A stretch of 62,512 nt of DNA, filler included, from Hausera hauseri (taxonomy: Eukaryota): assembly GCA_046269625.1 (NCBI GenBank). It is 9 parts of 9 records of this genome, joined end to end, with 100 filler letters (N's around TTAATTAATTAA, not from the genome) between each part and the next. Parts side by side here need not be neighbours in the genome. Positions count along the whole stretch, not along the records: positions 50,833 to 62,512 come from JBJURY010079991.1; 8 more parts are not named here. One strand, written 5' to 3'. The notes below the pieces were generated by a model. It worked only from the letters and a program-made list of their open reading frames with translations. It was not told the origin of the DNA and searched no databases. Position 1 is the stretch's first letter; every line of letters begins with the position of its first letter. A program made the translations under genes and the position numbers. This document shows, piece by piece, positions 4,081 to 62,512 of the stretch.

Positions 4081-4085
4081 TCGAA

Positions 4086-8700: not shown

Positions 8701-8716
8701 AAGCGCAATCAATATA

Positions 8717-10035: not shown

Positions 10036-10089
10036 CGGCCAAACAAGGGTTATAATTTACGCCAACACGAGGTAGAAACTTCCTCAATA

Positions 10090-19197: not shown

Positions 19198-19207
19198 TTA
19201 GTTTTTT
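19198..19207 (-). promoter_or_regulatory. Putative gag-pol -1 frameshift site (AAAAAAC followed by TAA)
   Basis: Lies between the Gag end and the protease; the same motif occurs at 29689-29698 in the second copy. Confidence 0.55.
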
Positions 19208-34400: not shown

Positions 34401-37400
34401 TTGTTCCTTCTTCTTTTCCTTCATGCGCTCATTGCTTCGCTCTTTCGTTCTTTCTTTCTGTCGTGCGTTCATTGCTTCGCTTGTTCGTTCTTTCGTTCGT
34501 TCGTTCACTCTTGCGCTTGTTCCTTCGTTCGTTCGTCCGCTCGTTCGTTCCATCGTTCATTAGGTCTTTCGTTCATTCGATCGCTCTTTCTTTCATTTGT
34601 TCTTTCGTTCGTTTGTTCGGTCCTTCGTTCATCAGAACGCTCTTTCATTCGTTCGTTCGTTTGTTCGTTTGATCGTTCGTTCTTTTGTTCCTTCGTTCTT
34701 TCATTCGTATGTTCATTCGTTCTTTTGTTCATTTGTTCCTTCTTCCGTTCGTTCGTTTGTTCGTTCGTTTATTCGTTCGTTCGTCTCGTCCTTTTTTCGT
34801 TCGTTCATCCGGTCGGACGTTAGTTCATTCTTTCGTTCCTTCGTCCGTTCGTTGCTTCGTTCGTTCGTTCCTTCGTTCGATCGTTCGTTTCTTCGTCCGA
34901 TCATTCGTTCTTTCGTTCTCTCTTTCGCTTGACCGTTCGTTGTTTCTTTCCTTCGTTCTTTCCATTGGTCCGTCGTTATTTCGTTCGTTTGATCGCTCTT
35001 TCTTTCGTTCGTTCTTTCGTTCCTTCGTCCGTTCGTTGCTTCCTTCTTTCGTTTCTTCGTTCGTTCGTTCTTTCCTTCTTTATTTCGTTCGTTCGTTAGT
35101 TCGTTTCTTTTTTCGTTCGCTCGTTCGTTGTCTCATTTTTTCATTCGTTCGTTCTTTATTTATTTCTATCGTTCGTCCATTCTCTCGTACGTTCGCTCGT
35201 TCTTTCGTTCCTACGTTAATTCTTTTGTCCTTTCTTTTGTTCGTTTGTTCGCGTTTTCGGTACTTCGTTCTTTCGTTCCTTCCTTTGTTCGTTCGATCGT
35301 TCGTTTTTTCGTTCGTTCGCTCTTTCATTCGTTCGCTCGTTCGATCGATCGTTCTTTCTTTCTTTCATTCGTTCGTTGGTTCGTTTGTTCCTCCTATCTT
35401 TCTTTCGTTAGATCGTTCGTCCCTTCGTTCTTTCGTTCGTTAGTTTCCTCGTTCGATCGTTCGTTCTTTCTCTCATTCGTTCAATCGTTCGTTCTTTCCT
35501 TCGTCCCTTCGTTCGTTCGTTCGTTCGTTCGTTCCTTCGTTCGTTTTTCCGTTTCTTCGCTCGATCATTCGTTTGTTTGTTCGCTTTTTCGCTTCTGCGT
35601 TCGTTCGTTCGTTCCATCGTTGGTTCTTTCTTCTGTTCGTTTGATCGTTCTTTTGTTTGTTCGTTCGTTCATTCGTTCAATCGTTCGTTCTTTTGTTCGT
35701 TAGTTTTTTCGTTCGATCGTTCTTCCGTTCTCTGATTCGTTCATTGTTTTGGTCGTTCCTGCGTTATTTCTTTCATTTGTTCGTTCAATCGTTCCTTTTT
35801 TCTTTCTTTCTTTCTTTCGTTGTCTCGTTCGTTCCTTCTTTGGTTCGTTTGTTCGTTCTTTCTTACACTCGTTCTTTCTTTCCTTAGGCCTTTCATTCGT
35901 CCATTCATTCTTTCGTTCTTTCCTTCATTCCATCGTTCCTTCGTTTGTTAGATCGTTATTTAGTTCTTTCTTTCCTTATTTCATTTTTTTCATTCGTTCG
36001 TTTTTTCGTTCTTTTGGTCCTTCTTCTATTAGTTCGTTCGTTTTTTCGTTTGTTCGTTCGTTTGTTCATTCATATATTCTTTCATTCGTTGGTTTATTCG
36101 TTCTTTTTTTGTTCGTTCGTTCGTTTTTTCGTTTGTCCTCTCGTTCGTTCCATCATTTTTTCGTTTGTTCGTTCGTTCTTTCTTGCCTCAGTTCGTTCTT
36201 TAATTATTTCGTTCATTCGATCTTTCAATCGTGCGTTGTTTCTTTCATTCTTTCCTTCGTTCTTTCTTGCTTTCCTTCGTTTGTTCTTCTCTTCGTTTGT
36301 TCGTTCGTTATTTCCTTCGTTCATTCGTTATTGCGTTCCTCCTTTCTTTCGTTCCTTTCTTCGTTCGTTCGTTCGTTTGTTCGTTCATTCGTTCGTTCAT
36401 TCATTTTTTCATTCGTTCGTTTATTTGTTCGTTCGATTGTTCGTTCGCTCTTTCTTTCATTCCTTCGTTCATTCGTTCGTTCTTTCATTGGTTTTTTCGT
36501 TCTTTCTACCGTTCGTTCGTTCCTTCATTCGTTCTTTCTTTCTTTCGTTCTTTTCTTCGATCGTTGTTCGTTCATTCGTTCGTTCTTTAGTTCTTTCTTT
36601 CTTTCTTTCTTTCGTTGTTTTGTTCGTTCGTTTTTCATTCATTCGTTCTTTCTTTCGTTTATTTGTTTTGTCTTTCATTCGTCCGTTTGCTCGTTCGTTC
36701 GCTCCTTTTTTCGTTTGTTCCTTCGTTCGTTAGTTCATTCTTTCGTTCGTTCTTTCGTTCGTTCTTTCAATCATGCTTTGTTTCTTTTGTTCTTTCCTTC
36801 GTTATTTCTTGCTTTCCTTCGTTCGTTCTTTCCTTCGTTTGTTCGTTCCTTCGTTCTCTCTTCCATTCGTTCGTTCGTTCATTCGTTCTTACTTTCGTTA
36901 TTTTGTTTTTTAGTTCGTTCATTTGTCATTCATTCGTTCTTTCTTTCTTCGTTCGTTTCTTCGTTCTTCCTCCCGTTCGTTCATTCTTTCTTCGTTTGTT
37001 CCTTCGGTCGTTAGTTCGTTCTTTCGTTCGTTCGTTCTTTCTTTCCTTTGTTCTTTTTTGCCTTCGTTCCCTCGTTTGTTCGTTGGTTCGTTCCTTCGTT
37101 CGTTCTTTCCTTCATTCGTTTGTTTCTTTTTTCTTTCGTTTTTTCATTTCTTCGTTCGTTCCTTATTTCATTTGTTCGTTCGTTCATTCTTTCTATCCTT
37201 CGTTCATTCGTTCGTTCGTTCGTTCTTTCGTTCGTTTATTCGTACTTCACTTCTTTCCTTTTTTTGTTCCTTTTTTCATTATTTCGTTCGTTCGTATTTT
37301 CGTTCTTTCATTCTTTCGTTTGTTCCTTTGTTTTTCCTGCGTTATTTTATTGATTCGCTCGTTCGTTCGTTTGATCTTTCGTTCGTTCCTTTATTCGTTC

Positions 37401-39758
37401 TTTCGTTTTTTCCTTCGTTCATTCGTTCATTTGTTCTTTCCTTCGCTTGTTCGCTTGTTCGTTCGTTCCTTTGTTCCTTCGTTGTTTTATTCGTTTATTT
37501 TTTCCTTTTTTCGTTTTTTCATTTGCTCGTTCCTTCTTTCATTATTTCTTTCGTTCTTTCGTTCAATTTTTCTTTCTTTCGTTCTTTTGTTTTTTCATTC
37601 GCTTGTTCGCTCGTTCGTTCGTTCGTTCCTTCTTACGTTCAATCGTTCTTTTTTTCGTTCCTTTGTTCGTTCCTTCGTTCGTTTATTTGTTCCTTGTTGC
37701 GTTCCTTCTTTTATTCTTTCGTTTGTTCGTTCGTTCTTCTGTTCATTCGTCCGTTCGTTCGTTCCTTCGTTGGTTTTTTCTTTCTTTGTTCAGCTCTTTC
37801 GTACTTTCTTTCCTTTGTTTGTTCGTTTCTTCGTTCGTTTGATCGTTCATTCGTTCTTTCTTTCGTTCATTCATTCTTTCATTCGTTCTTTCATTCGTTT
37901 GTTCGCTGATTCGTTCATTCGTTCGTTCCTTCGTTCGTCTATTCTTTTTTTCGTTATTTCTATCGGTCCGTCGTTTCTTTCTTCATTCCTTCCTTCGTTC
38001 CTTCATTCATGCGTTCGTTTGATCGTTCATTTGTTCTTTCTATTGTTTTTTTCTTCGTTGTTTCGTTCGTTCGTTCGTTCATTCGTTCTTTCTTTCGTTC
38101 ATTCATTCTTTCATTTGTTCTTTCGTTCGTTCATTCTTTCATTCGTTCTTTCATTCGCTTGTTCGATGGTTCGTTCGTTCGTTCGTTCTATCGTTCGTCT
38201 ATTCTTTCTTTCGATATTTCTATCGGTCCGTCGTTTCTTTCTTCGTTCCTTCCTTCGTTCCTTCATTCATGCGTTCGTTTGTTTGTTCTTTTCTTCGCTC
38301 TCTATTTTGTTCCTTTGTTTTTTAGTTCGGTCGTTCGTTTGTTCGTTCGGTCATTCCTTCCTTCACTCTATCGTTCCTTTCTTCGTTCTTTCGTTCGTTC
38401 GTTCTTTCCTTCTTTCTTTCTTTCGTTCCTTCGTTCGTTTGTTCGTTTTTTCTTTACTTTCTTCTTTCGTTCCTGCGTTCCTTCTTTCGTTCGTTCGTTT
38501 GCTCTTTCGTTTCTTCCTTCCTTCTTTCTTTCGTTCCTTCGTTCTTTCGTTCTTTCTTTTGTTGGTTTTTTCTTTCTTTCTTCCGCTCGTTCGTTCTTTC
38601 CTGCCTTAGTTTGTTCGTTAATTCTTTCGTTCGTTCTTTCGGTCATTCGTTCTTAAATTCGTTCCTTCGTTCTTTCCTTCATTCGTTCGTTCGTTTGTTC
38701 ATTCTTTCTTTCGTTCGTTCGTTTGTTCGTTCGTTCGTTTGTTCGTTCGTTCGTTTGATCGTTCTTTCGTTCTTTCTTTCGTTCTTTCCTTCTTTGTTTC
38801 CTTCGTTCGTTCGTTCATTCGTGCATTCTTTCTTTCCTTCTTTTGTTCTTTCTTTCTTTCGTTCCTTTGTTCGTTTGTTTGTTTCTTCGTAGTTTCTTTA
38901 GTTCTTTCTTTCGTTCTTTCATTTTTTCTTTCGTTTGATCTTTCTTTTGTTCGTTCGTTCGTTCATTGTTTCGTTCTTTATTTCATTTGTTCGTTCGTTC
39001 CTTCGTTCACTCTTTCATTCTTCCGTTTATTCGTTCGTTCATTCTTTCCTTCGTTCGTTCTTTCCTTCTTTCTTTCTTATGTTCCTTCATTCGTTCGTTC
39101 CTTTGTTCTTTCGTTCGTTCGTTCTTTCCTTCTTTCTTTCTTTCGTTCCTTTGTTCGTTCGTTCTTTCAGTCGTTAGTTCGTTTTTTCGTTCGTTACTTC
39201 TTTCGTTATGTCTTTCTTTCGTTCGTTTTTTCTTTCCTTTCTTCTTTCGTTCCTTCGTTCGTTCGTTTGTTCGTTCATTGGTTCATTGGTTCTTTCGTTC
39301 GTTCTTTCATTCTTTCGTTCGTTCGTTTGTTCTTTCCTGCCTTAGATTATTCGTTAATTTTTCCGTTCCTTCGTTCGGTCATTCGTTCTTTCTTTAGTTC
39401 GTTCGTTCATTCTTTCTTTCGTTCCTTCCTTAGTTCTTTCGTTCATTCGTTCGATCTTTAGTTCTTTCTTTCGTTCTTTCGTTTTTTCGTTCGTTCGTTC
39501 TTTTATTTGTTCGTTCGTTTATTATTTCGTTCGTTCGTTCGTTCGCTCGTTTGTTCTTTCGTTAGTTCGTTCAGTCGTTCGTTCATTCGTTCATTTGTTT
39601 GTTCCTTCTTTCTTTCGTTCTTTCTTTCCTTCATTTCTTTGTCCATTCTTTCGTTCGTTGTTTTACACTTTCGTTTCTTACTTCCTTTTTTCTTTCATTC
39701 CTTCGTTCGTTCGTCCTTTTTTTTGTTGTTTTTTTCTTTCTTTCTTCCGCTCGTTCGT
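31441..39758. repeat. Degenerate (TTCG/TTCT/TTCC/TTCA)n tetranucleotide satellite with higher-order duplications
   Basis: 8.3 kb that is almost A-free on the + strand; a long block recurs at 31441, about 32023 and 32675. Confidence 0.97.
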
Positions 39759-39779
39759 CAGCACTGGGTATAGCAAACC

Positions 39780-41040
39780 CTAACATTTCTTTCCCCTCTG
39801 AGAAACGATTCGGTCCTCAGGATTACACTGGGTACTGACATCAATTAAGCTGAGGTTTCTGCGTATGATTGTTACTGTCGCATCGTTCATTGGGTTAATG
39901 CAATTGCATAGTCGTTGGGTATGATTGTCGTAGGTGTATGAGAAATGGTAACAGACTGTTGGTTGACGGCAGAATGGACATGAAATACCGTTCTGGAAGA
40001 TCATTCTAAGTGCATCGTTTGGATCAATGCATTGAAGGAATTTGGAACGAAGTTTGCTGAAGCACGTTGTGCATAGATTATGGTTGCATTGAAATTGGAC
40101 AACAATTGTACGTTCGGTAGGGCATATGGTACATTCACAGGTTGGGAGTTGGTCGTGGAAAAGGATTTGTAGTGATGCTCAAAGATCTGGTGGATCTAGG
40201 TCAGAAATAAGGTCGAATGGGCATCGATTTAAGACTTGGAATTAATCTTGTTGTAATGATGATGGTAACGGAGGACTATAAGATATAGTCGGTATAGGCG
40301 TTATTGAAAGTGTAGGTACTGGTAGTGAAAGTAATGGTCTAACAATTTGTTCAAAACGATAACGTGGATGCGGTATTCAGGATAGTTGGCGTAATAGTGA
40401 CATGACGTTTAATGCAGGTAAAGGTGCTTGGTATGTAACTGGCGGTAGTCTAACTATTGTAGATTGGCTAAATGATGTAATGGAAATTCAACTTTGGCCG
40501 ATGAATGTTGCCCTAATCGGAAGTATCTGGCTGGAAATAATAGGGGAATCGGCATGTTAGTAATAATGCGTAAGGCACTTCTAGTGTGGTGAAAGTAAAA
40601 ATATATGAATTGAGGACAAAAATAACATATGCTACAAATCAGATGTCGATGGTGAGATTTCATTTGGTAGCAATGGGAGCAATATTTGTCATTACAGCAA
40701 CTAAATTGGTAGGTTGTTTTAATGGGTTTATGGCAGAGACAACAGGTATAAAGTTGGAAATATGGGATAGAAAAAGGGGTTGACACATCCCAGGTATAGC
40801 AGTATGTAAGGTGGTCAGTAGGTTTGATAATTTCGAATGTTTTAGCATCTATCAGGGATTGGTCAACATCAGATGAATATGCATTATGCTGGATACAGTA
40901 TCTAATTTCATATTTACAAATAGGGTAATATGGAATACGTTTTTCCTGCGATCGGGCTCTATCTATACTGTATAAACATAACATGTGTAGGCATGATGTA
41001 AGTCTGTACACTACACTGAAGATTACTCGGCATTCCATAC
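39780..41040 (-). pseudogene. Multi-RING (C3HC4) finger protein, decayed, no introns evident
   Basis: Three RING-like units: C..SCLHMLC..YPIC; CCLC..SCCNDKYCSHC..CSIC; CTIC-x11-CNHNLCTTC...CPFCR; Pro-rich linker. Confidence 0.65.
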
Positions 41041-42477: not shown

Positions 42478-43545
42478 ATGCCTGCAAAATGAAAAGTCAA
42501 ATCCAAATCAACACCAGAACAAGATACCAGACGGAGAAGTGATTGTTTAGATGAGATGGATAAAGAAAAGCCGAAAGAATCACCAAAAGTTGCAACGAAA
42601 GAAAAATAAAGGTAACAAGAAAACAAGGGAGAAAGATGTTCTCAGATTAGCGACAACGAATTCGACAATATGGGGAGCCAGATTAGATATGCTAGAGAAG
42701 TCGAAGGCCGAATATCGGGAAACTGCGTTGAAATTGGCAAACCAAAATTCAGAAATGCATGACTGTCTCTTGAAGACCGAGAAGGACATGTGACGGAAAA
42801 AGTCACCGAGAATAAGAAACTCAAGACTCAAGTAAAAGAGTTAACTTCAAAAGTCGAATTATTGGAAATGGTTTTAACTCAGTCAGTTAAGGAATTTGAT
42901 GCACTTAATCAGCAATTGAGACAGATGCATGAAAACGAAATAGATTCATCGAAAAAAGAGATTGAAAAATTACAACGATTATTGGAACTCAGAACTAAGG
43001 AGCTAAAGAAGATTCGCATTTTAGCAAAACAAGTATTGAACGATCGATCAGAGATAGAAAGATTCCTTTTAGAATCGCTGGAAGTAGTTAAGCAGGAAAT
43101 CACTTCGAATCAACTTCAATATAAAAGGATGCTCAACTAGCATACCATCAGAAAATGAAATTAGTCTACAATGGTCAAGACGAATTTCCTCCCATTCAAA
43201 CGTTCAGTAAGTCAGACACGAGCACTAATAGTGTCTACAAAGATTTAGAAGCAGCTGTTAAATTTATTGATGCGTCGGGAAAAGTTGATATTTCTGATTT
43301 AACTTGGGAGCAGCGTGAACGAGTCATTCGTTATTTGTTCATAAAAATTAACCAACCTCAAGTACAAAGAAACCTGTGGAAACTGATGATATACAAACGT
43401 AATGATTTGCGACGAAACATTCCCTCCTTTGCCAAGTGCAACTAATTCTCAGACAGTTGAAGTCTTGCATGAAAGATTGAATGCATCATTAGTTCAAGAT
43501 GAAGACGAGGGAAATACATTTTGACACAAAGAATAAATTCCTTTG
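42478..43545 (+). pseudogene. BBOF1: Basal body orientation factor 1 (CCDC176) processed pseudogene with internal deletion
   Basis: IWGARLDMLEKSKAEYRE, IERFLLESLEVVKQEI, FPPIQTF..STNSVYKDL, VDISDLTWEQRERVIRYLFIKIN match BBOF1; no introns seen; stops, frameshifts and the central coiled coil missing. Confidence 0.85.
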
Positions 43546-46684: not shown

Positions 46685-49243
46685 GTCAGCACCTAAAGGG
46701 AATTCCTTTCACTATACTACGACTTAAACAAGATCTGAAAGGCAACTTGGATGGAACAACACAAGTAGGTAACGAACTCAAATGGATTGCAAATTTAACA
46801 TCAATCACAAGTTCAGCAAAAGAGTTTAGTATAGTATAAAAAACAGATCATGTTACCAAAACGCTGGGAATGAAGTGGAAAATTAAAGGTGATAATTTTG
46901 GATTCGAAAATCGAAACAAACAAGAGAGAAATTACAAAAAGAACGCTATTGAGTGCTCTGGCGAAGAGATTCGATCGGATAGGTTTCCTTAATTGTTATA
47001 CATTAATGAGAAAGGCGTACTTACAACAACTGTGGATGATGAATGTGAATTTGGACGAGAAAATCCCAGGGGAACTAAGCGATAGAATAAAAACATGGAT
47101 AAAGGAGATGGAAAGTTTGTATAGAACGAGAACGATAATAGCAAAATATATATATTTTGCGACGCTTTCCGATGGGGGTATGGGGCGGTTGCCATTTTAA
47201 GGTCACCAGTGGGAGATAAAATTAAGGTAGCGATCATATGTTCAAAAGGCAAGGTGACACCCGTAAAGTCCATCGCTACACCCATGTTGGAGTTAATAGC
47301 AGCCTGTATAGGAATTAAGCAGGGGAAGAAAGTGGGAAAAGCCTCATCCAACAATAAAGGCATACAGTATTGGGCTGGTAGTATGAACGTGTTGTATTNN
47401 NNNNNNNNGGATCAAAGGTTGTAATAAATATTACAAGACATTTGCTGCGAATAGAATCGGCTATATTCACGAGGAATCAGCAGGAAATCAGTGGAACTAC
47501 GTAAAATCAGAACAAAACCCAGCAGGTTACTTATCAAGGGAACTTCCAAACAAAATCGAATGGTGGTACGGCCCAGAGTTTCTTAGGCAAACGAAAGATC
47601 AATGGCCAAATCAAACCAATGATTTACCAAAGCCGAAAGAAGAGTAAAGAAGAAAGTATGCGTTTACGTTGATGTCATTGAGAACTATAACGCAAAATGG
47701 ACAGTATCGAAATCAAGATGACACAGATAACGCACAGCAATATGTTGAATCGCGTTGGGAAAAAATGATTAGACGAAAGGTGGAGGAAATTTCGCAAATA
47801 GACCAAAATAACATTTTAAGCAAAGCAGAACTAAGAAGTAAGGCAAAATTAGAAATAATAAAGGAGGACTACCAAAAGAAATTTTCTCCAGAGATAAAAA
47901 ATATAAAATCTAACAAGGAAATCGATATTAAAAGCAATATCGTTAAGTCCAATCTTATTGTAGATTTTGAAGGAGTGTTGAGATCAAATAGACGACTGAT
48001 CACCACTTTTTTGATGAATTGGGAACAAAAATACCCAATAATACTGTCGCCGAATAGCATCGTAACAAAATTGATTATTGAAGATACACATTTGAATCTG
48101 CGGCACGCTGCGGAAGTCAACCATCAAGTTGCGGAATTGAGTAGTAGGTATTGGTTTCCTAAAATGAAGAAACTGGTCATAGCCTACCAAAACTATTGTA
48201 AAATTTGTAAGAGGGCAAATGCAAAGGGCATACAAACGATAGGAGCGCCATTACCGGCGTTTAGGACACATCTACCGCTTAAAGCTTTTGACAAGGTCGG
48301 AATCGATTTTGCAGGACTGGTGAGAACACGACAAAGACGAGGTTTAATACATGAAGAAAGGTACATATGTCTAATCACTTGTTCGCTCTCTCGAGAGGTG
48401 CACGTAGAAATGTTGACAAGATTGGATACAAATTCATTCCTGAAGGTGCTCAAGCGTTTTATAAGTCGGAGGGGAAGACCTTTGTTGATAGTCTCCGACA
48501 ACGGAGGAACATTTATAGGAGTGAACATAGAAATATGTGAATTTCAAATAGATACATATAGTCTTAAAAGAGAATTGAAGGACACTGAAATAAGGTGGAT
48601 ATTCAACCCTCCTGCAAACCCTCATTTCTGGGGAGTCTATGAAGTAATGATCAAATCAGTAAAGAACGCGTTAAACAAATTACTTCCGGAAACCTCCATG
48701 ACAGACGAAGAGCTGGAAACATTACTAATAGAGATCTAGGGAATAATGAATAGCCGGCCAGTAATTAGAGTCGTTGATGATAGTAAAAACGATGTCGTTC
48801 TGACTCGAAACCATTTTATAATAGCTGGACACAACAATGAAACCTCCTCGGAAATAACCGGAACGAAGAGGAGCAGCTTGGCAGATAGGTGGAGATATAT
48901 ACAAGAATTACTCAACGAATATTGGGATCTCTGGAGAAGTGAACTCCTATCCGAATGGCGAATTTATGATAGAATAAAAGGAGAAAAAATAAAATTGAAA
49001 ATCGGAGACAAAGTGTGGCTATTAGAGAAAAATGAAAATTTAAATCACTGGCCGGTCACAGAAATAACAAAGGTCTTCCCAGGGACAGACAACGTTATAA
49101 GAGTAGTAGAGCTAAGACTGAACGGGGAAACGTATAATAGGTCAGTTCACAAGCTGTGTAAAATAAAAAATGAGTTGGATTGGATCGATACCGTGGAAGA
49201 CGAATCTATGAGCCGGATTACCCCAAGGAGGGGGAAATGTTAG
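46685..49243 (+). mobile_element. BEL/Pao LTR retrotransposon, 3' half of pol (RT end, RNase H, integrase, C-terminal domain), decayed
   Basis: KTLGMKW, TKRTLLS..FDRIG, FCDA..GYGAV, PMLELIAA, NPA..LSR, WWYGPEFL, H..H..CKIC, GIDFAG, SDNGGTF, GVYEVMIKSVK, VFPGTDNVIRVVEL; PPT AGGAGGGGGAAA then TGTTAGG (LTR start at 49238). Confidence 0.95.
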
Positions 49244-50832: not shown

Positions 50833-51440
50833 TTGTCATGTAGTATAATCGAAATATGACCATCTGCGTTTATTTCACATGTCTTTACGGCTAATGTAGC
50901 CGTTTTCTTAACGTATTCACACAATTTCAGTTCCGTTTCCATTAGTAAATCGTGTGGTATAAAATATGAGAGGAAGAATAATTCTGACTAAGTTTACTTT
51001 ACTATAATATCGGTTTCCGTAATGGATGAGAGGTCCAATTTTCACAAATTATGCATGTCCAACTAGCCGTATACATTTTACGTGTACCTTGACTAATTAA
51101 ATATCCATGCCTCAACATCAGCTATAGATTTAAACTGATAAACCAATAAATATTGTCGCGAATAATTGCGAATAGTATATCGGTTATTGTGTCGGGTTGT
51201 CCGAAAACGACTTGAAATTTGGTACGTTTCTTGTCGGTTAACGTAAATACTACTGTTCTGACGTATTGTCATTGGTAAAAATGTAAATGCGAATTCCGTT
51301 AAAGCCACTTCCCAGGCTTCCTGATGTAAATTGACCGGTTTATCCAAATGCATAGTAAACTCTTTAGCGGTATTTTCATTGTCGTCATGCTGTGATAATG
51401 ATCTGTTACTATCAAGTACAAAGTAAATGTTGCTGCTCAT
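50833..51440 (-). pseudogene. Polinton minor capsid (penton-like) protein, N-terminal part
   Basis: MSSNIYFVLDSNRS...ENTAKEFTMHLDKPVNL..WEVALTEF, the typical Polinton minor capsid N-terminus; the ATG overlaps the integrase stop (ATGA). Confidence 0.75.
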
Positions 51441-52463
51441 TGAATTTGTGATGCAAAAATCCAAATCTGTGCAGTGTATCTGTGCCACTTGACGAGATAT
51501 TGTTTATTCGAACCTTTGCCATGTGATCGTAGAATTTCCTAAATACGATATACATTGGGTTTCTTCGACAGTACCTGCAGTTCCTGATCACAGAATTCAC
51601 CGCTTATTTACTCACAGTTTTTTCCTCTAAAATGTACATAACCAGTGTTTGTTTTGTGTTGATTGCCGAAATGCAGAAAACCTTGTCACTCCAGCTTTGA
51701 TTGAAATTCTTAATGAATGGCGTCGTACTTATTTTAGAAATACGTACGTAAGGACCGATTTTATATTTTTGGCGTTTAATTGCCTGTCTTTATGTTCGAT
51801 TTTGATAAAGCCACATGTTCACATCATGGACTACGTCAACCGGTCTTAATCCATTGATGCCAGAATGTGTCGAATGGTTGTATGCATGAATAATATCCGG
51901 CAGTACAACTACCCAGCGTTTGTTGTCTTGCTTCGTAAAGAATTTGTTTAGGCAACCGCGCAATATTCAATTAAATGGTTCAACGAGTGCAGCCTTGTAT
52001 TAGGGAAACACCGTGTAGTGGTTTACGCCTAACATTTTCAAGACCGCTGCAACGTGGGCGTTGTAAAATTCCTTACCCAAATTCGTTTGTACATATTTCG
52101 GGGCTGTTGTTCAATTAAACTGTGAACTGCGTCAGAAATCTCTTTATCGGATTTGGATTTGACTGTAATTGCACGTGCAAAACGACTAAACACATCAATG
52201 CATGTCAGCACGCACCGATATCCATCGTTGATGCTGGCGTAAGGAATAATTTCCATCAAATTCATTTGCAATATATTATTTAAACCTGCAGCACCGTATG
52301 CACGAGTTAGAAACCGCCTTCTTATAGGTTTGTTTAGGCTGTGTGCTAACTGCTTCCCCAACCAACGTTGGGTTTGTCGCTGAGTCTGTTTCACAGTCTT
52401 TGCCAGTTTGTCGACACCAGTATACCCGACGGGATAATGTGGATCGAACCACACATCGCCCAT
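51437..52463 (-). pseudogene. int: Polinton retroviral-like integrase with C-terminal chromodomain
   Basis: WFDPHYPVGYTGVDKL, LTCIDVFSRFA, LGKEFYN, AALVE.FN, YVRISK..WSDKVF, QYLVKW. Confidence 0.88.
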
Positions 52464-52624
52464 CGTTGCCGCCAATGGTGTTGGTTTTGATTGCATTACA
52501 ACAACTAGAACGAAACGTAAATGAAAGATTGGATAAACTGGGATAAAATGATGAAAACCATGCACCATATCTCTAAATATTCATACACTTACCGTCATTG
52601 TTTATACTAAACTGTTCCACCAAT

Positions 52625-52933
52625 GAGTCAATCCAGTAATGACGTGGCAATCGGTAGAATTTCATCAAGGAATCTATCACCTTGCTTGTACATGACCTCT
52701 CGTTTCATCAGTCGTTTATTTCGAGCTTTGGCAAGGCCAATGAGTTGTTTTCAATACTTTAGTAAATTCCGCTTTCCACTACCAATGTCAACGTGACCCA
52801 CAACGATATTGTATAAAATTTCCACCAAATCGTCCACAACAAATTGCGGGAATGATCTCAGTATGTTTTGCTTATGTCTCGTAGGTGCCTTGAACAAAGC
52901 GATAAAGTACGGCTGACTACGTTTGAATTGCAT
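52625..52933 (-). pseudogene. Small basic conserved Polinton protein
   Basis: KQNILRS..DLVEILYNIVVGHVDI...KQGDRFLDEILP resembles the small Polinton protein ending Q.GGFL..LLP. Confidence 0.5.
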
Positions 52934-53134
52934 TTTGAACGTAATGATGCTGAGACATAGTTGTTTATAACCGTTGCAACTGTAACGGTAATTTGCATCT
53001 AGTTGCTGCTGCTGTTGTTCAAAGCACAGAATTGATTAATCGCTTGAGTGTAGCGGTTCGTTTTGATACGCTTTTTTTGCCGGACACCCGCTTGGCAGGT
53101 TTACTTTTAACAATTGTTTTTCGGAAATTCTTCT

Positions 53135-53780
53135 TTTTATCACAATCAAGTCGTCAATTTTCGAATTTGTTTATAGACATGTACACCTTTCGGATTGAAA
53201 ATATCTGTTCGTACACGCATCTCATTGGGACACTGTAGTGTAAAATCAATAAACAGAATTCCATACGGTTTGTTTGTAGCATCATGATATGTATCTATCA
53301 AGTAGGCTGGGTTGTGACAAAAGCTTGTCGTGCAATATCATTAATGATAGTCCGATCACGAGAATATTCAAACAACACCAAATAGTGTACGTTGAGATTT
53401 CTTGTTCGATGCTGTCCTCCCTGATGGAACATGTTTTGCGTAATGAAAATAACCGTTACGCCACGGTGTCGTGCAATCTTCGTGAACAGGTTGTTGCAGT
53501 CCGATTGTTTCGTGGCTTCCTGAAATAAATCGTCGATGACAATAGCATCACCATTGCGTAATCTCTCAGACCCGTATTGATCAAACCCATAAATTACCGT
53601 TATCGATTTTAATTTACCGAACTCATCATCATCACCAACACCCTGATGCCAGTAAATATGATTGTACCGCGGTGAGTGGAACATGTCACGGTAGTTCTGC
53701 AATAGTTTACACAAAACGTGTGTTTTGGCACTTCCACTGGGGCCTACAATGTGGAAAATTGCATCATTCAGCAGCTTTAT
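53135..53780 (-). pseudogene. A32/FtsK-like genome packaging ATPase
   Basis: Walker A IVGPSGSAKT, Walker B IVIDDL, ARHRGVTVIFITQN, KPYGILFID. Confidence 0.9.
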
Positions 53781-53878
53781 CTAATAATAGTAATAAAAAT
53801 ACAACCTTTCTTCACATGATTTGTTTATAATCATGTTACACGAATATAAATAGCTATATTATAAACACTTTTTCCGTA

Positions 53879-54340
53879 ATGTTACCCAATATCAACTATC
53901 GCGGACATGTTGCCGAGTGTGACATTAACAAACTACCTTTAAATCAATGGAAGCCGAGACAGTATGTCCTCAAGTGTCCGCCGGATTTTACATGCATTGT
54001 ATTTCAATTGGGAAAGTGTCGTATTATGGCATGCCGCAAAGCAATCAAATCTGATAAACTACTACCATTTGTAATTGTCATTGACCAAATCCAATCAATA
54101 ACGGTAATGACTAATTTAGACTGTCCATCAGTGAACCTGTACAAGTTAGCAATGGCCACTGAATGTACGTATGAACCCGAACTGTTTCCTGCACTGAGAC
54201 TGACACTGTTTCGCACACTTGGTGTCAATGTGTTTAGTAGTGGAAAAATTGTTGTACTCGGTATTCGGGCAGTGGATTATGAACCTATTATTAATCAAAT
54301 TAAAAACCACACAAATGTTTTAGTGAATCAAACTAATGTA
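53879..54340 (+). CDS. TBP: TATA-box-binding protein-like (two TBP repeats, core only); the ORF reads on to 54478
   Basis: Repeat 1 PNINYRG...TCIVFQLGKCRIMAC; repeat 2 IQSITV...VNLYKLA...YEPELFPALRL...VNVFSSGKIVVLGIR. Confidence 0.85.
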
Positions 54341-54397
54341 CTCTGCACAACAACAAACTATAAATACCATTCCCATGCTCATTCAGACATTACTGCC

Positions 54398-55087
54398 ATG
54401 GAAGACGACGATAAAACGATTCTACTCAATGATGATGATGGTGTTTGTGAGAATGATGAAAGTTCAGATTGGACGTGATTGTTTGACTACAAAAAGGACA
54501 ATTATAATGCCAAATATCTGGAAACGAAAACAGAACCTGCCCAACAATTAGAAAAACCGTGTGATAATTCTAATGGCGATTGCTTGGAAACGAAAAAGAA
54601 CTTTCTTAGAAATCATCAGCAAAACCGACGTTAAAAAGACAAATGGCAATGGTTGGAATACGTAAAGGAAAATCAAAACCGTCGCCCCAAACACAGACAT
54701 TTTTACCGAAACGAATTTTTTGCAAATATGAAACGCATTTTCTGCAAACGCCGGTAGTGATTTCATTGAATGATCCCGTGTCTCTATCCGCACCCAAGTA
54801 CAGCTATCGTGTAAAATGGCTTTCGGTTGAAACTGGATAAACTTTTTGATGCTCTACATCAATTAAACATGGATTTAAAGTTAAATGAAATGACCGTGCA
54901 ACAGCAATCTGTAGTTCTACCGGCTCAGAAAACTAAATTGTTTGATTTTATCGGTCGCGAAATTTCTAATGTACGCGATGATGATTTAAAGTGTCAACTG
55001 AACACTGAACTTCAGGGATATAAGGAAAAAGCCGGTATCAAATGCCCGATTTGGCGTGTAGCTGAAGCACATTTTAAATATCAATAA
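54398..55087 (+). pseudogene. Unknown Polinton ORF with acidic N-terminus, decayed
   Basis: TATAAATA at 54359 upstream of ATG 54398; broken ORF chain ending at a TAA that overlaps AATAAA. Confidence 0.4.
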
Positions 55088-55191
55088 ATATTGTTGTTGT
55101 TGGTTTGTTTTACCGCTGTTCTTCTTTCGTTAACTTAATGAACGAGTATAAATATACGTGTACTTTTAATATTGGTATAGGAATAAGAATA

Positions 55192-55662
55192 ATGATAATG
55201 AATAATGTAAAGATTATCTTAACAGACGAAAATGTCTTTGTACCGAGACGTGTTACATCAAACAGTGTAGGCTACGATTTGTTTTCCAATGTCAATACAA
55301 CAATTTTGGACAGCACAATCAAATGCATAATTGGGATTCGATTGGCGATTCCACCCGGTTACTACGGCCAACTTTTATTGAAAAGCGGACTGGAAAAGCT
55401 GGAACTGAAGGTTGTGGGCGGCGTCATTGATTCAAACTTTTGCGGTGAAATTAAACTGTTGCTGGAAAACCAATCCGGACTATTGTATAATATTGCAAAA
55501 CGCAATGCAATCGCACAAATCGTATTTCTTCGATTTAAAGAGGCGCAATTCAGCGTAATATAATCGGAACAATGGGGATTGTTTTGTGTCAATGAAGCAA
55601 CAACATGATATGAACGCAAAGAATTTGGCTTTGGTGATATGGGCAAAACCACCTATGTTTAA
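55192..55662 (+). pseudogene. dut: Trimeric dUTPase
   Basis: SVGYDL, GIRLAIPPGYYGQL..KSGL, GGVIDSNFCGEI, IAQIV, ERKEFGFG; premature stops before motif V. Confidence 0.92.
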
Positions 55663-55741
55663 TGATTGTGATGATAATAATAAAAAGAGTTAGTTGTTTT
55701 ATTTGTGTTATAAACAAAAATTATTTTGTACATGATAAGTA

Positions 55742-56229
55742 ATAGAGACAAGATTTATAGATATTGAAGCTTTCCAAGATAATAATGCCCGGCACATAAT
55801 AAAGGAATTGTGCATTATTGACTTCGGTAGATTTTCAAACGGCTTGGGTGAGTATTCAAGCCCGGTTTTATGTGGAATGACCTGAAAAAAAAGGCGAATC
55901 TTACAAACGGATTTCTCTTTCGACATCGTCACGGAGTTCATTGGTATGAAGGCAATTCAGTTTTGTGTGTGACGTGTATTATGGAAGAGATTTGTAATCG
56001 TTCTGACATTGAAAATACAATGTTTTATATTAAAGGTCAAATTGATGGACAAAAGTTTACACAACTCCATTCACACTTTCCTGAGTTGCGAATGACGACA
56101 TATTTAACATCGAATAGCTTGCAGGCAATGGTATTTGACAATATTAGATGTCCGTATCGTGACCATGGACTGCATTGTGCTTACAAAAAATGTTTACGGC
56201 TTTGCATTGACTATATTTCATGCAAATGA
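55742..56229 (+). pseudogene. DEDD/DnaQ-like nuclease of the type found in large DNA viruses and Polintons
   Basis: FIDIEAFQ..IIKELCIID, HGVHWYEG, FYIKG, C-terminal CPYRDHGLHCA. Confidence 0.6.
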
Positions 56230-56338
56230 ATAAATGTATTTCTCTGTTTCTTTCTTTCAGCAAATAAATCCGTGACATGTTTATCCGTATTGGTCAGTTG
56301 AATAGTTCAAAAACTATAAATACGAGTAGGTTATAATA

Positions 56339-56808
56339 ATGATTGAAATAGTTGGTCAATTGAAGAAATTGCAAAATTTTAATGGATTAGAAATTTCGAA
56401 CTTGGTACAATGGTGGCGAGTACTGGACTGTGGTTTGGTTGCGAGAGCAGCAGGTGATTTTGGATTTAAAGAAGATTTATCTTCAATGGTATTGATGACA
56501 ACAACAGATTGCAGCTCTATAGAAAATCTAATTATTGTGTTAAATTAAATGAACATTCACCGATTGTATGTTACAAATACTTTAATACTGTTGAAAAAGT
56601 ACGTGGCGAATTAAAGAACTCGAAGGAGAAAATAATAAACAAAGTACGAGACTGTAAGTTTATGTATGTACTATGTAAACAAAGAAAAGTAGATACGGTA
56701 TTCCTAATGTGCGGCCGTCTCTTTATTTGCCAAATGTGTTCCAAAGTAACCGAATGTCAAGAATGTAAATGTGCTATAGTGGAAATTGTACACATTTATA
56801 ACGAATGA
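56339..56808 (+). pseudogene. IAP-type C-terminal RING finger protein
   Basis: VLCKQRKVDTVFLMCGRLFICQMCSKVTECQECKCAIVEIVHIY at the extreme C-terminus; some zinc ligands mutated. Confidence 0.7.
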
Positions 56809-57122
56809 CTGTTAACAGAACGAAACAGTGTCATGGGTTAAAATGACGTGGGGATAATTTGTATCAATGTGATATGAGTCAATACTAACAATGTAAATAT
56901 CTATTGTTTACAATGAAAACAAACCTGTATGAACAAAGTTGATATAAATTTGGATGATATTTCATTTTACGTTTGTCATCTTTAAACAATGTCTTTGTAA
57001 AACAATTCAGTAGGTGACAGTTCTGCGAGTCTCTCAAAAAACCACGGTAAAGCGATTATTCGCTCAGAAATTCCCCATTGTATAATGGATAAAATTTACA
57101 TTACCTATGAAACACTATTCAA

Positions 57123-57480
57123 ATGTCATTGACGCAAACAGTTAAAATCAAACCGGTGAAATATGGTCTATTGGTTAAAAAGATCAGCGACGATGATTTG
57201 GATACAATGGAATACACAGTTAGAAAAATTGACAGTGATTTGGTGTTGAGTAACGATATCCGATATACATCGTCTATTTTTCTCAAAGGAAATATGGCGA
57301 AAATTGTCCGTTCACATGGCGGGAAACAGAAGCAGCAATTTTGCCACCGAAAGGAGCTAAAGGCCATCTAACATTGAAGTTGAAAGGATAAGTGGATCTA
57401 CATGGCGTTAAATCACCAATATGGAAACTGGGAAATTTTATGCTGATTTGACTTATTTTGTTTTTGATTGTAGCTTATGA
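57123..57480 (+). pseudogene. Unknown Polinton ORF
   Basis: 82-aa ORF with a probable frameshifted continuation, convergent with pPolB, AATAAA downstream. Confidence 0.35.
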
Positions 57481-57643
57481 TTAATAAATTTAGGTAAATT
57501 AAATGATAATAAAACAAAAGGCAAAAACAACAAACAATATACATAATTTATACAAAACAAACAGATCACAATGAATTTTCATAGTAAATGGGTCACTTTG
57601 ATCTGTCTGTATCATCAAAACTGAATTCATGCGTGTGCTTATT

Positions 57644-60600
57644 TTATTCCAAACGTCTATGTCCATACGCTCAACTTTTATTTCGTCCCACCCACTTGCA
57701 CTTATCATCACTGCACGATAAAGCGACTTTGCATTGGTCACAGTATACAGATGGTGCTCAATTGATCAGATGATCGTTTGAGACACAACAATCTGTTTGT
57801 CCTCCATCTCCTTATTCATAGATACATCGATAACCACCGTGGTTTATTTTCGTCTGGGCCAACTGAACTCCTTTGGCGCGATTTTTGGTCCAGAGTCAGT
57901 TAACAAGTTATAACATTTTGGCCATAGAAATATTCATTTCCCATAATGAGCGTGACCTTCACTTTCATCCTTGAAGCAGCCAATTTTGTTTGTAATGGCG
58001 TTGCTATACAATGGATGAATCTGTGGATAATTTGACGTGTCCGGTAATCCGTGTGCCATCATTTGCCGTAGAAGTTGTTCGCGATTGATGTTTTTTAGTT
58101 CCAAGAAAAAACTACCTGTGTCACCGGCTATTATATTGATCCTGTATCCGTCGCCGCCAAACATTTGCTAGTATCGTGCCAAATCGCAATACTGCAACTT
58201 ATATATCCGCAACTTGCTCAGATCCCAAACCACTTGTTCTATATAACTTGGCCGGTCCAGTACGACTTCTTCCCTGTTTAAAGGTACGACATCCAATCCA
58301 TTGGCAATGTGCATTGACCGCCTGAATTGCGCCTTGCTGGTGTACGTGACGTACCGCTTTTTGCTATTGAACAGGCGTACATTGAACCGCTTTTTCCCTA
58401 GAGAGAATTGTTTTTCAGTTTGTAATAGTCTTTGTCAAACTTCGTACAAGCTGCAGCTCGTTTTTCAGAATTTAGATTGATATATGGCTTGAATATAGAA
58501 GCCTGTGCGAATCGGATTGCGCGATGCAGGTTTGTGACGCGTGCACCTAACTGCATGTAAAATTGCAACAGACGCCAATGAACTATGTAGTTTTGTTTAG
58601 GTTAATGCGTCATAAGCAGCTTTTGCACCTTCGAGCCCGGTGGGCATTGGCTGATGGGTGCAACTGGCAGTTCATCACAAAAGTCATGCAGCTCATCTGT
58701 TACCACGACGGCGACTTTTATCAGGTATACGATTGAGCTGTTTTCTGCCGTGTCTGCTCTCAGCAGATTTCCCAGTATTGTTTCCAGGCCCTGTTTGTCG
58801 ACTGTCCATTCGAATGAATCTTACGTCAAGGGTTGCGAAAGCGTCCAGCCGTGCAGGTTATTAATGTCGATATACAACAGTGATATGATATTATCACTGG
58901 TTTCGTAATGCTTGTTGACGAATGTCATGCCGCTACGAATACAAACATCAAATATTCGGTACATTTTCAGGTCTTGCGATAGCTTCATATCCCGACCCAA
59001 TGACATCCGAGCTGTTGCCAAACTCACTCCAGATATAGAGTAAAAATTAAGTGGCTCCAGCCTATCTTCTACCAACGCTTTAGTTTGAAATGTCTGAAAC
59101 ACATCGGCTAAAAGGAACACATCCAATTTCATATAGTGAAGCATGTACTGCAACAGGTTTCTGCAGTCAAGCTCTGTCCAAAACGACTGTGCTTTGTGAT
59201 ATTCTTCTTCTCTGATACCGCGCCATTGCGGTGGTAATTCGTCTGTCATCTGAAGCCGGGCGTACCATATCTCAAAATCATACGGGAATATGCCTTTGCT
59301 ACATGAAATATGTCTGGGGAACTGAGTCAATGTTACCGGCATATCTGGCAAGGCATTTACAAACTTTGCCAGAGATTCATTAAGAAATTTCAATTAATCG
59401 AGGAAGCGTACTTGGAAGCGGTTTATACAAGCAGATAGTGTCAGGTATTCCTCCATCGTAGTCGGAATTACGAATAGTTCCCAGTGCGAAAATCCGTTTA
59501 TTGCTTATTTCAAAATATGGTGGCAATCATAACTCCTGAAGTTATGAAAGATCACCGGTAGGAATGGCCGCACACGTCTTGCCAAATTGCATAAATTATA
59601 TGCGGCTCCGAGATATCGACCGATAAAATGATTGTGATCCTGTGCGAGGCGTTCCTGTGCATCGAATGGTAATAATTCGTTGCACAGGTAACAGTCATCT
59701 TTGACTGTAAACGTCAAGCTTTCATCTTTATCTGTCCAGATCAGAGATTTTGTGCTATTATCGCAATATCACAGTGCGATTTCAGTTTCCACTATGGTTT
59801 GATACTGCTGCAAGAAATCGCGTACACAATTCTATCCGTGGAAAACACAATATTGAGGTTGACCTGCGGCTTTTATAGGGACAACCAACAAACCGACGGC
59901 GATTGGAACATGTTTGTGGTCATATATGTTTTGCCTTGGTAAGATAGCTTGGATATCGGCAAATACTACATATGAAAAACTGTCAGATTTTGTCCAATCA
60001 ATGAAGTTGAGTTCCTTTTTGACGGGCATGATATACATTGTTGTTCCTGACGAATTTTGTCTGCACAGAGTCACATGATTCTCCCATGTTGTTTCTGATC
60101 TAAATCCATGCAGACATACGGGACACCATTTACATGGTATCCGTTTTTTGAAGAAGTAGTCATGTTCCATGTTCAGAAATGTGTTCAGATTTGTCACTGC
60201 AACTTACTGGTACTTTTCCTTTTATTCGAATTGCAACAAATTAATTGGGCAGCCATTTGGGTTCCGACTACGATACATTATATCCGCATGAGGATTCTTA
60301 AAGATTTCTTCATTCATCGGTATTTCAACTATTGAGTTGTACCGGAAAACGTTGATTTCTAGTGTCAAATTATGCCGTTCGAAGGCCGGTATGGCTTTTA
60401 GTTTCATCGGCATCCAGCTTTCATGGAAATCAAATTCGGAAAAATACTGCCGATACTGATTTGGACGATTAGAGTGTTTTCTGACCACTTTGTCGGGTTT
60501 TAATACCGCCAGAATGCTCCAAAGAAAACAGTATACATTGTTAGTATTTTTTACATTCACTACCACCAGAGATTGCTGCAGGTCTCAGAATGAATGATCG

Positions 60601-61126
60601 CCCGGACAAATATATTATGTCACTCGACTTTGTTATGATAAAGCCGAGGGTGACAATTTTTATAATTCACCATCCACTATATTTTCCGTGTAGTTGGCGA
60701 TTTTCTCCTAAAGTTTTTGCTTACTTTGGTAATAAAATCGTTGGTATACGGTTAGGCTCGATGTGACAGGGACCATTGTTTCCTGTCACCTTTCAAATTT
60801 TCAAAATCTGCAGTTGCATAATACTGCACATTGCAGTTGTGTTGGAATTTCTCCACTTTCGATTCCAACGGGTTCCGCACATTTTGCGGAACATGTCTCA
60901 ATTGCGTTGTTGTTGTTGTTCTTGTTGTTTTCGCCGACATGTTCACCTTTATGTCCACATGCGATCTGTTCAAATCATACTTGACTGTAATATTGGGAAT
61001 ATTGGCTGTCTATTGCTCCTGTTGTTATTGTTGTTATTGTTATTAATGCTGTACCTGCTGCTCCAGTTGCTGCTGCTCGGTACTGTTTCTGATTAAGTCG
61101 TTCAGACTTGTTAAGGCCTGACGTAT
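57644..61126 (-). pseudogene. pPolB: Polinton pPolB, copy 2, with N-terminal poly-Q, vOTU-like region, C2H2 finger and endonuclease VII-like insert
   Basis: VVNVKNTNNVYCFLWSILA; CPVC..WENHVTLC; CYLC..DHNHFIGRYLGAA..CNL; IFHNFRSYD; KGIFPYD; YIDINNL; AGDTGSF; GCFKDE; ALSCSDDK..AYGH. Confidence 0.93.
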
Positions 61127-61134
61127 CCTACTGG

Positions 61135-61600
61135 TTATTGAGGGTATGCTACTGCTGCTGATTTTAGTTGAGCCTATAATTAGTTGTATTTTTGACCGCT
61201 TAAACTGGTTTAACTGGTCCTTTTAAAAATTATAAAATTGTTTATAGTTAATTTCAACAACTATTGAACAAGAACCGGACAAACGCAGGCTCGTTTATTG
61301 TGCAACGCTGTGGTGCCATGGTAATGATCCATTGTACTATGACAACCACTAAAGTTGGACACTTTATTATTTCAGTACTGTGGGTATGTGGTGCAATGCT
61401 CTACCATCATTTTCTTAGACCTAGTAAACAGACCAAGATGATGCTTGTGCATTTCATAAAAATTTGAGTACGGATAATGGGTTGGAATATTACACTCTGA
61501 ACACAAATACATGTCATTTTCTCCAGCTCTGTAATATTTCTTCATCTGTTGATGATACTGATCCACCTCAAGTATGCGCGAGACACATTACATGGGATGT
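61135..61600 (-). pseudogene. Polinton tandem zinc-finger protein, copy 2
   Basis: CSEC-x13-HKHH plus a second degenerate repeat; homologous to 13624-14053. Confidence 0.55.
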
Positions 61601-61743
61601 TTGGAACATTTCTATATGCAAATAAATTAAATAACATTGAAATGGATTAAAATTTTAAATAAAATAAACTCTATGTGAAAAATTTCCTTACTCGGTTATA
61701 AACATTTATTTCGCACACTATTACTACTACTACAATAGATAAA

Positions 61744-61938
61744 ATGGAACAGAACATTGAAAGTGAGATTCAGAAATTTACTGATGACACAATGACTGGA
61801 CATGTGTTTGATGTACAGTTTTTATGTGAACTCGCAGAAACACGAATAATGAGCACGCGAGAATATATTGAGTTAATAGTCAGATCTCTCTTTGTAAAAC
61901 GTATCGAGGATAAAGTGAAACGAAAACGGCAACAATGA
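61744..61938 (+). CDS. Small 64-aa Polinton ORF divergent from pPolB
   Basis: TATAAAC at 61697, AATAAA downstream; start MEQNIESEI is conserved as MEQYIEIEI at 14246 in the other copy. Confidence 0.55.
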   Translation: MEQNIESEIQKFTDDTMTGHVFDVQFLCELAETRIMSTREYIELIVRSLFVKRIEDKVKRKRQQ

Positions 61939-62512
61939 CAGCGGATTAATTTCCTCATTGGACTTGTATTTTCTGCTTCGCTTTGTATTGTAAATAAAAA
62001 ATTAATTAGCCGTATTTAATCACGTTTGTACATATTTTGTTGCGTTCGTTTTCGTGAATCAATATAATTTATTTTGCGTGTCTTTGTTGTTACATTTCAG
62101 TATGAATACTTGTGCTTCGTTACGTCATGACATTACGACATGTCTCATTTATCAGAACCTACTCGTTTATATTACTCCATCGACAGTCTCCTGAGTCACC
62201 TTTACAATCTTGATCGACCTATACATGATGTGCCATACTGTTAGCCAGAAGAGATATGTCTGAGTGCTGAGGAGAATTGGAGGGTACGGGAACTTTATCT
62301 ACGACACATAAAGCAGGTTGTTGGTGATATGGGTACGCTATTCGGCCAGATTTTTCATACTTATCAGAAATTGGCGGATGTGTTAGGGTTTGGCAATCCA
62401 TTGATTGAATAATAACCCAGATGTCTGCAAACCTTTGTTTACAAAAACCTTATAACATTCGTTCACAAAATTTCATAACATTCTTTGAGTAATAAATGTG
62501 ATCAGAATCTAA

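Follow-up and report, generated by a model that had tools for sequence, protein, structure and literature searches.

A lineage of Polintons, represented by a decaying copy in Hausera hauseri, encodes a minimal TATA-binding protein that may act as a late-promoter factor

The window, i.e., the whole stretch of 62,512 nucleotides analysed here, comes from the genome of Hausera hauseri and is made up of parts joined by N's, the last of which, the contig at 50833-62512, carries an open reading frame (ORF) for a TATA-binding protein (TBP) within a broken Polinton (Maverick) element. The genes and boxes of this element are as follows.

51096..51440, minus strand: penton (likely minor capsid), N-terminal part; named from position and size, without Pfam match
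51443..52502, minus strand: rve integrase, with two frame changes and five stops
52599..52606, minus strand: TATAAACA box before the integrase
52619..52951, minus strand: small conserved virion-module gene of about 110 residues (cluster C4), without Pfam match and with two stops
52962..52969, minus strand: TATAAACA box before the C4 gene
53158..53780, minus strand: A32-type packaging ATPase (Pox_A32, E 1.4e-4), with one frame change near 53320
53168..53175, minus strand: TATAAACA at the 3' end of the ATPase
53822..53829, minus strand: TATAAACA box about 45 nt before the ATPase
53845..53852, plus strand: canonical TATA box TATAAATA, 34 nt before the TBP start codon
53860..53867, plus strand: TATAAACA, 19 nt before the TBP start codon
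53879..54478, plus strand: minimal two-lobed TBP (Pfam, PDB match, predicted fold), 199 residues, core at about residues 1-150
54712..55087, plus strand: broken homologue of cluster C3, predicted Enc34/T7-type ssDNA-binding fold (Foldseek probability 1.00, but E 0.03)
55204..55563, plus strand: dUTPase (Pfam E 6.5e-16)
55709..55716, plus strand: TATAAACA box before the C2 gene
55739..56229, plus strand: cluster C2 gene (27 loci), with one frame change and without Pfam match
56509..56808, plus strand: RING-finger ORF, weak (E 0.0016, under the Pfam cut-off)
57647..60678, minus strand: protein-primed DNA polymerase B (pPolB), with three frame changes and about 15 stops
61697..61704, plus strand: TATAAACA box 47 nt before the C22 gene
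61744..61938, plus strand: small cluster C22 gene, found directly after the TBP in loci L022-L024

A preliminary description had proposed a two-repeat TBP-like ORF at 53879..54340 on the strength of three motifs (YEPELFPAL, VFSSGKIVVLG and IVFQLGKCRI), all of which lie within the frame. Its plus-strand start at 53879 is right, but the frame runs on to 54478, beyond about 54364, where the closest relative stops; the acidic tail past that point is likely part of the next gene. The identity of the ORF is borne out by a Pfam PF00352 match (E 9.4e-12; 45.1 bits versus a curated cut-off of 22.9) and, in a sequence search, by matches to TBPs of the PDB at E 3e-9. An AlphaFold model, computed from an 80-sequence alignment, reaches a pLDDT of 94 and a pTM of 0.83, and its comparison with the PDB by Foldseek yielded 44 matches at E ≤ 0.001, all of those listed being TBP-containing entries. 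With TM scores to solved TBPs of 0.63-0.72 over about 170-180 columns, the model displays the two-lobed saddle, and the fold on which the earlier proposal turned is that of TBP. It is confirmed that 53879-54478(+) encodes a Polinton TBP with two lobes, the putative function of which would be to bind and bend TATA-type DNA and nucleate a preinitiation complex.

The TBP gene sits, as first described, between the integrase and pPolB on one contig and head-to-head with the minus-strand ATPase, about 100 nt away. pPolB and the integrase are recognized by Pfam (DNA_pol_B_2, E 1.5e-6; rve, E 0.0015 on a fragment) and by tblastn to an intact relative (E 3e-93), and the ATPase is 58% identical to that of an intact relative. 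Of the capsid and protease genes, the window shows only the penton-like fragment at the contig edge, and neither terminal inverted repeats nor a target-site duplication were found in contig 50833-62512, whose end falls inside the element. No match to TFIIB or to an RNA polymerase occurs in 68 window segments of at least 58 residues or in 43 of 98 listed neighbour ORFs, which is not proof of absence because the element is broken and incomplete. The C3 homologue was considered as a possible TFIIB and rejected, since its predicted fold matches Enc34/T7-type SSBs; its profile match with cluster C14 is weak (probability 8.6). The C2 gene looks DEDD-exonuclease-like, by eye, from its N-terminal DxE motif. 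In run X1, 52,415 divergent contigs cover all 30 bins of the contig, the TBP region included, a coverage that is not independent because X1 may be the source sample.

Over 5.9 kb, some 29 stops or frame changes interrupt the genes around the TBP, some of the stops being possibly explained by local misalignment. It had been remarked that the TBP frame is still open while its neighbours are broken; this is true but carries no weight, since at the neighbours' decay rate a 459-nt gene would stay open by chance with a probability of 0.10-0.31, and the open frame is thus no evidence of selection on the window copy. This copy differs from the family at three almost invariant positions, and in a quick tree its end branch measures 0.27 versus 0.05-0.10 in its sisters. 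It is best read as decaying along with the remaining element and is probably no longer functional.

Other parts of the window hold further features. A related Polinton fragment lies on another contig (10980-14272), its pPolB region being 81% identical over 2.2 kb. An intronless ORF of 822 residues at 22163-24631 (-) codes for a PIWI/Argonaute protein (Piwi E 3e-65, PAZ E 1e-15), and a degenerate repeat of tetranucleotide type (TTCG/TTCA-like, AT skew -0.8), which gives rise to many spurious ORFs, fills about 9 kb at positions 31400-41000. Exon-like coiled-coil ORFs at 42551-43445 (+), without any Pfam match, presumably resemble BBOF1/CCDC176. Remains of LTR retrotransposons at 46889-49243 (+), 1350-10900, 16277-19900 and 29701-31249 include an integrase with H2C2 (Pfam), which we take to be BEL/Pao-like, and Gypsy-like gag/pol pieces (by eye).

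A word-based search recovered 86 relatives of the TBP, of 35-73% identity, among 114 candidates, and a profile search gave 71 clusters (50% identity) at E ≤ 1e-30, with cellular TBPs among the weaker matches; the family members are bare TBP cores of 145-180 residues. The JGI metagenomes yielded 141 stretches with a gene for a relative; the analysis covers the best 80 of them, many of which originate from few data sets. A hallmark gene (ATPase, integrase, pPolB, protease or likely capsid) is present in 36 of these best 80 of 141 loci, and the linkage rises with locus length to 19/23 at 4 kb or more and 6/6 at 8 kb or more. The ATPase, integrase, protease and pPolB were labelled by Pfam on representatives, and the relatives carry an adenain-type protease (Peptidase_C5); the names hexon (400-430 residues) and penton (250-530 residues), for proteins that Pfam leaves unnamed, are inferred from size and order. 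The head-to-head arrangement with the ATPase is not conserved, being found in one of 26 relatives (L028), whereas in 24 of the 26 the ATPase follows the TBP on the same strand, and it was therefore dropped as evidence.

The distances between the TBPs track those of the ATPase (rho 0.80, 21 loci, Mantel p 0.001), the integrase (rho 0.82, 11 loci, p 0.001) and the hexon (rho 0.71, 8 loci, p 0.019), the long-branch L039 being omitted here and from the AU tests. Among 30 non-overlapping pairs, dN/dS is 0.06-0.38 in the 16 with dS<1 and 0.13-0.79, mostly 0.3-0.8, in the 14 remaining, more distant pairs, which are saturated; these ratios indicate that the family evolves under purifying selection. 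In quick trees, the family forms one side of a branch with an SH-aLRT of 100. AU tests on 16 of 67 family rows, in trees without TRF2 sequences, reject a single clade of the window TBP and cellular TBPs (p-AU 3.7e-64), and reject neither the family as sister to cellular TBP (p-AU 0.31) nor its grouping with the viral clade of L001 (p-AU 0.27). The identity of the window TBP is about 20-25% to cellular TBPs versus 73% to family members. The gene is thus not a one-off retrocopy, because many other elements carry it intact and linked to the ATPase, integrase and pPolB, and its grouping with cellular TBPs alone is rejected; the proposal of a polintovirus lineage with a minimal, divergent TBP finds support here, and the Polinton TBP is a real lineage-wide gene rather than an accident of the window locus.

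Other resources were less informative. IMG/VR holds no family member, its single match, L001, being an ordinary giant-virus-type TBP that adjoins PolB and ribonucleotide reductase (judged by eye); hexon queries of IMG/VR gave no match, and ATPase queries gave distant virophage-like loci only. An Atlas query with P0001 returned TBP clusters only, with uninformative taxa, and the cluster look-ups returned one name, 'hypothetical protein'.

Within the family, a divergent sub-branch (P0085, P0141, P0177, P0183, P0186, P0197, P0202 and P0207; SH-aLRT 97) includes P0141, which seems to have a third lobe, and P0202, which is fused to an N-terminal part of 230 residues. The C2 gene is tandemly duplicated right behind the TBP in L055, L061, L067, L068, L070 and L075, and the copies in L055, L068 and L075, where both were checked, mostly have a TATAAAC box of their own. 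An acidic ORF (C11) and the SSB-fold ORF (C3) stand in tandem in nine loci within L002-L030, as if they were the exons of a single SSB gene, which would imply an intron in a Polinton gene. Accessory genes of the TBP-positive elements code for ubiquitin-conjugating E2, RING-finger, leucine-rich repeat and KilA-N proteins (L024:225-719(-), L052:13315-13893(-), L039:1710-2168(+), L043:2303-3109(+) and L059:218-1216(+)).

The residues that are kept, lost and newly fixed were surveyed in 152 family sequences, numbered after the plant TBP P0152 (yeast numbering is +41, as checked at P191, I194, V203 and L205). The glutamates E145 and E147 are retained in 96 and 99% of the sequences, and N28, Q117 and P150 are also kept across the family. 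Three of the four intercalating phenylalanines (F75, F149 and F166) are retained in 99-100%, and F58 has become proline in 99% of the 152, so that the four-phenylalanine set of the TBP family is incomplete at its first N-lobe member. The newly fixed states, each at 83-99%, are Asn at V30, Pro at F58, Arg at V81, Met at T83, Ser at N118, Thr at V120, Arg at I153, Cys at V162 and Asn at L164, i.e., nine positions of the DNA face fixed anew although the mean column identity of the family is 25%. V30, V81, T83, N118 and V120 presumably face the DNA in TBP-DNA structures. The window copy and 78-85% of the family lack residues 92-101 of helix H2, the basic N-lobe helix of eukaryotic cellular TBPs. 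R155 and one phenylalanine are lost in the family, and their loss could make DNA binding weaker or different. The protein is thus a member of the TBP family that departs from cellular TBP in two of its defining features.

The positions concerned have known counterparts. I153, V162 and L164 correspond to yeast I194, V203 and L205, which are, in the available text of PMC1636458, the three positions of the altered-specificity mutant TBPm3; the same text has the N-lobe reading the 3' half of the TATA box, where C is disfavoured, and bases other than T disfavoured at position 1. According to the accessible portion of PMC7221094, the C-lobe glutamate pair (E145/E147) binds TFIIB, and the basic patch of H2 binds TFIIA, TAF1, Mot1, NC2 and Brf1.

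A recurrent box lies upstream of the genes in these elements. In de-duplicated regions of 120 nt, ATAAAC[AG] stands in front of 65 of the 73 genes of the virion module (ATPase, C4, C20, hexon, penton and protease) on the sense strand and 0/73 on the antisense strand, as opposed to 3/60 TBP genes and 7/85 genes of the TBP/SSB/pPolB group, the gene classes having been set after the per-gene counts were seen. It is also found at 43/62 other genes (PLA2, C2, integrase, LRR and C2H2), and it is absent (0/29) from the virion genes of 11 Polinton loci without a TBP match, which are partial and of which five belong to one clade. Fisher tests, in which kinship is ignored, give 6e-25 against the TBP genes and 2e-18 against these controls. 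The box mostly takes the form YATAAACR, with T as the first base in 48 and C in 19 of the 73 genes, and TATAAAC peaks 30-50 nt upstream of the ATG, its count in the best 80 loci being 208 versus 115 ± 11 expected. Single-base neighbours of the box are almost absent: TATAAAAA is found at 0/73 virion genes and TATAAATA at 5/73, compared with 41/73 for TATAAACA, yet CATAAACA is accepted at 13/73 despite two departures from the consensus. TATAAAC is often missing upstream of the integrase (2/14) and the penton (4/13). Among 135 upstream regions, GTAAACA occurs in 2 and TATAAACG in 13. The canonical TATA box precedes 21/60 TBP genes in sense and 6 in antisense.

In the window, five of nine YATAAACR sites precede the homologous genes (ATPase, C4, integrase, C2 and C22), and for this contig alone the enrichment is not significant (9 versus 5.1 ± 2.3 expected; 19/200 simulations). 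TATAAAC ahead of the TBP gene is unusual for the family (1/60 TBP genes), and the TATAAATA box at 53845..53852 is likely read by host TBP. In a crystal structure (PDB 1QN3), wild-type TBP accommodates a C(-25) TATA variant through a Hoogsteen pair, and DNA of the TATAAAC type is in this way accessible to host TBP. The TBP and the box count as approximately one phylogenetic event, because both sit in one lineage.

A counter-example to their joint occurrence is L103 (1-12321), a complete and intact Polinton of 12.3 kb with terminal inverted repeats of 135 nt, in which no TBP match is present. Its ATPase falls inside the TBP-positive clade and its pPolB outside that lineage. ATAAAC[AG] stands at 2/6 of its virion genes, with a near-box TATAAACT at the ATPase, a frequency below the 65/73 of the TBP-positive elements (p 0.004), and a weak PC4-coactivator-like ORF (11373-11885 (-), E 0.003) is under the cut-off. 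Since L103 keeps boxes without a TBP, the box can outlast a TBP in cis or do without one; the element would fit a natural module swap, with the boxes decaying afterwards.

The reading which we prefer, at a probability of roughly 60%, is that the minimal Polinton TBP is a virus-specific late-promoter factor that would bind YATAAACR and recruit host TFIIB and Pol II for the packaging and virion genes. It is backed by the fold, by the existence of the family and the way in which it is linked to, and diverges together with, the core genes, by purifying selection, by the strand and position of the box and by the changes in the DNA face; from the strand- and position-specific box we infer that host Pol II is redirected, as the preliminary description had suggested. 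In such a programme, TBP, SSB and pPolB would be expressed early, from ordinary TATA boxes recognized by host TBP. The viral TBP would then bind YATAAACR better than host TBP does and would prefer it over TATAAAAG, its two retained C-lobe glutamates would dock host TFIIB, and the loss of the basic N-lobe helix would free it from Mot1, NC2, TAF1 and TFIIA, whereby the YATAAACR-bound protein would drive the packaging and virion genes via host Pol II. We put at slightly better than even the stricter form of this proposal, a one-protein late switch in which a TBP of about 150 residues, re-programmed to YATAAACR, would keep host TFIIB and Pol II and escape TFIID, Mot1 and NC2.

Part of the same evidence could be accommodated if host TBP/TFIID read the box as a weak TATA variant present throughout the lineage, the viral TBP merely boosting supply or escaping Mot1/NC2 without a specificity of its own. 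The boxes retained by the complete, TBP-less L103, the ability of host TBP to bind the C(-25) variant and the deletion of the regulatory helix in the family are all in keeping with this, yet it would leave unexplained why nine positions of the DNA face are newly fixed at 83-99% in a family of 25% mean column identity, why the virion genes shun the canonical neighbours (TATAAAAA 0, TATAAATA 5 of 73) and accept CATAAACA, and why L103 is poorer in boxes (2/6 versus 65/73, p 0.004); we consider it unlikely. The almost invariant TFIIB-binding pair, together with a diverged DNA face and the loss of one intercalating phenylalanine, could also suit a decoy or repressor, which would sequester host TFIIB or block TATA boxes and so shut down host or early viral transcription while another factor reads the box. 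This is quite improbable, as the DNA face is newly conserved and not degenerate, the box resembles a TATA element in position, strand and shape, and the loci have no further conserved DNA-binding regulator in common.

There is scant likelihood, in our estimation, that the box is a forkhead-type site for a host factor, with the TBP acting elsewhere, e.g., at the termini in replication or with Pol III. Forkhead-type sites have the consensus RTAAAYA, and TATAAACA does include ATAAACA, but the motif is strictly sense (antisense 0/73) and fixed in position, GTAAACA appears in just 2/135 upstream regions, and TATAAACG is tolerated in 13/135. As for a recent, roleless retrocopy of host TBP in this element alone, the gene is indeed intronless and the window copy decaying; such an origin is nonetheless refuted, its probability being close to nil, by the identity to cellular TBPs (about 20-25%, against 73% to the family), by the rejection of a clade with cellular TBPs (p-AU 3.7e-64) and by linkage and selection across many elements.

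Should the one-protein late switch be true, no smaller viral late-gene system would be known, the protein would be a TBP of naturally altered specificity, and a transcription programme would have been described for Polintons for the first time. A dedicated TBP and late box would be a further sign that Polintons have a true viral cycle. YATAAACR would offer a handle on active elements, through transcripts starting about 30 nt downstream of it. On a re-programmed minimal TBP with near-invariant substitutions, TBP-DNA recognition could be put to the test, and with its box the protein would be a candidate for an orthogonal promoter-factor pair.

The elements share with Polintons, Mavericks and adintoviruses the pPolB, rve integrase and A32-type ATPase and, in the relatives, an adenain-type protease and likely capsid genes. 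The earlier claim that TBP lies outside the described Polinton core genes holds for the eight genes that form the core set in vertebrate Mavericks, which exclude it (PMC8097293), but a TBP label is already in print, in the Fig. 5 legend to a polinton-like virus map (Starrett 2021, PMC8502044), which may or may not refer to this family. In the available text of that article and of the preprint 10.1101/697771, TBP occurs in this legend label only; the figure and the rest of the supplement may say more. No promoter box is described for Polintons in the available text of PMC8097293 and PMC8502044, and the terms TATA and TBP are absent from PMC11161782, 10.1101/2023.08.22.554363, 10.64898/2026.10.13.758929, PMC11131425 and PMC8097293. 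An account of the timing of Polinton capsid or packaging genes was not found in the literature searched, Repbase and most subscription journals being beyond its scope.

The Polinton TBP shares with cellular and archaeal TBP the saddle fold, the YEPELFP stirrup, both TFIIB glutamates and three of the four phenylalanines. It differs in its size (about 150 residues versus about 180), in the deletion of H2, with its basic patch, and of part of the first lobe in about 80% of the family, in a polar and newly conserved DNA face, and in forming its own branch. TRF2 retains a full-length fold. This animal paralogue of TBP, also called TBPL1, has altered intercalating residues and other promoter use according to the accessible part of PMC7221094, and in these two respects the Polinton protein appears similar to it. 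With the TBPs of Nucleocytoviricota, the Polinton TBP shares the loss of the N-lobe regulatory signatures and structural matches at E 6e-7 to 1e-3. Nucleocytoviricota with a TBP usually also carry a viral RNA polymerase. Those TBPs are divergent at the positions that bind adapters, and a viral TFIIB is the partner of many of them (PMC7221094, available text), whereas the Polinton protein keeps the glutamates, and TFIIB was not found in its broken, incomplete element.

A parallel is offered by the viral TBP mimics of beta- and gammaherpesviruses, such as ORF24 of KSHV, which reads TATT (TATTWAA) late promoters through a polar face (PMC12529657, available text). Both cases would involve a virus without an RNA polymerase of its own, a TBP-like protein with a polar DNA interface, a variant TATA box and late genes. 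As far as the accessible text of PMC12529657 goes, ORF24 is large, acts in a six-member complex, makes direct contact with Pol II and, as modelled, is not compatible with TFIIB; the Polinton TBP, by contrast, is a bare core with the TFIIB glutamates. Pfam named no herpesvirus-type preinitiation-complex partner among the scanned ORFs, the protein is not a large, Pol II-binding TBP, and herpes proteins match its fold weakly (E 8e-4 to 1e-2). By analogy, the Polinton TBP likely works like the herpesvirus viral-TBP/TATT system without being a member of it, and would thereby constitute a parallel to that system in an unrelated virus group.
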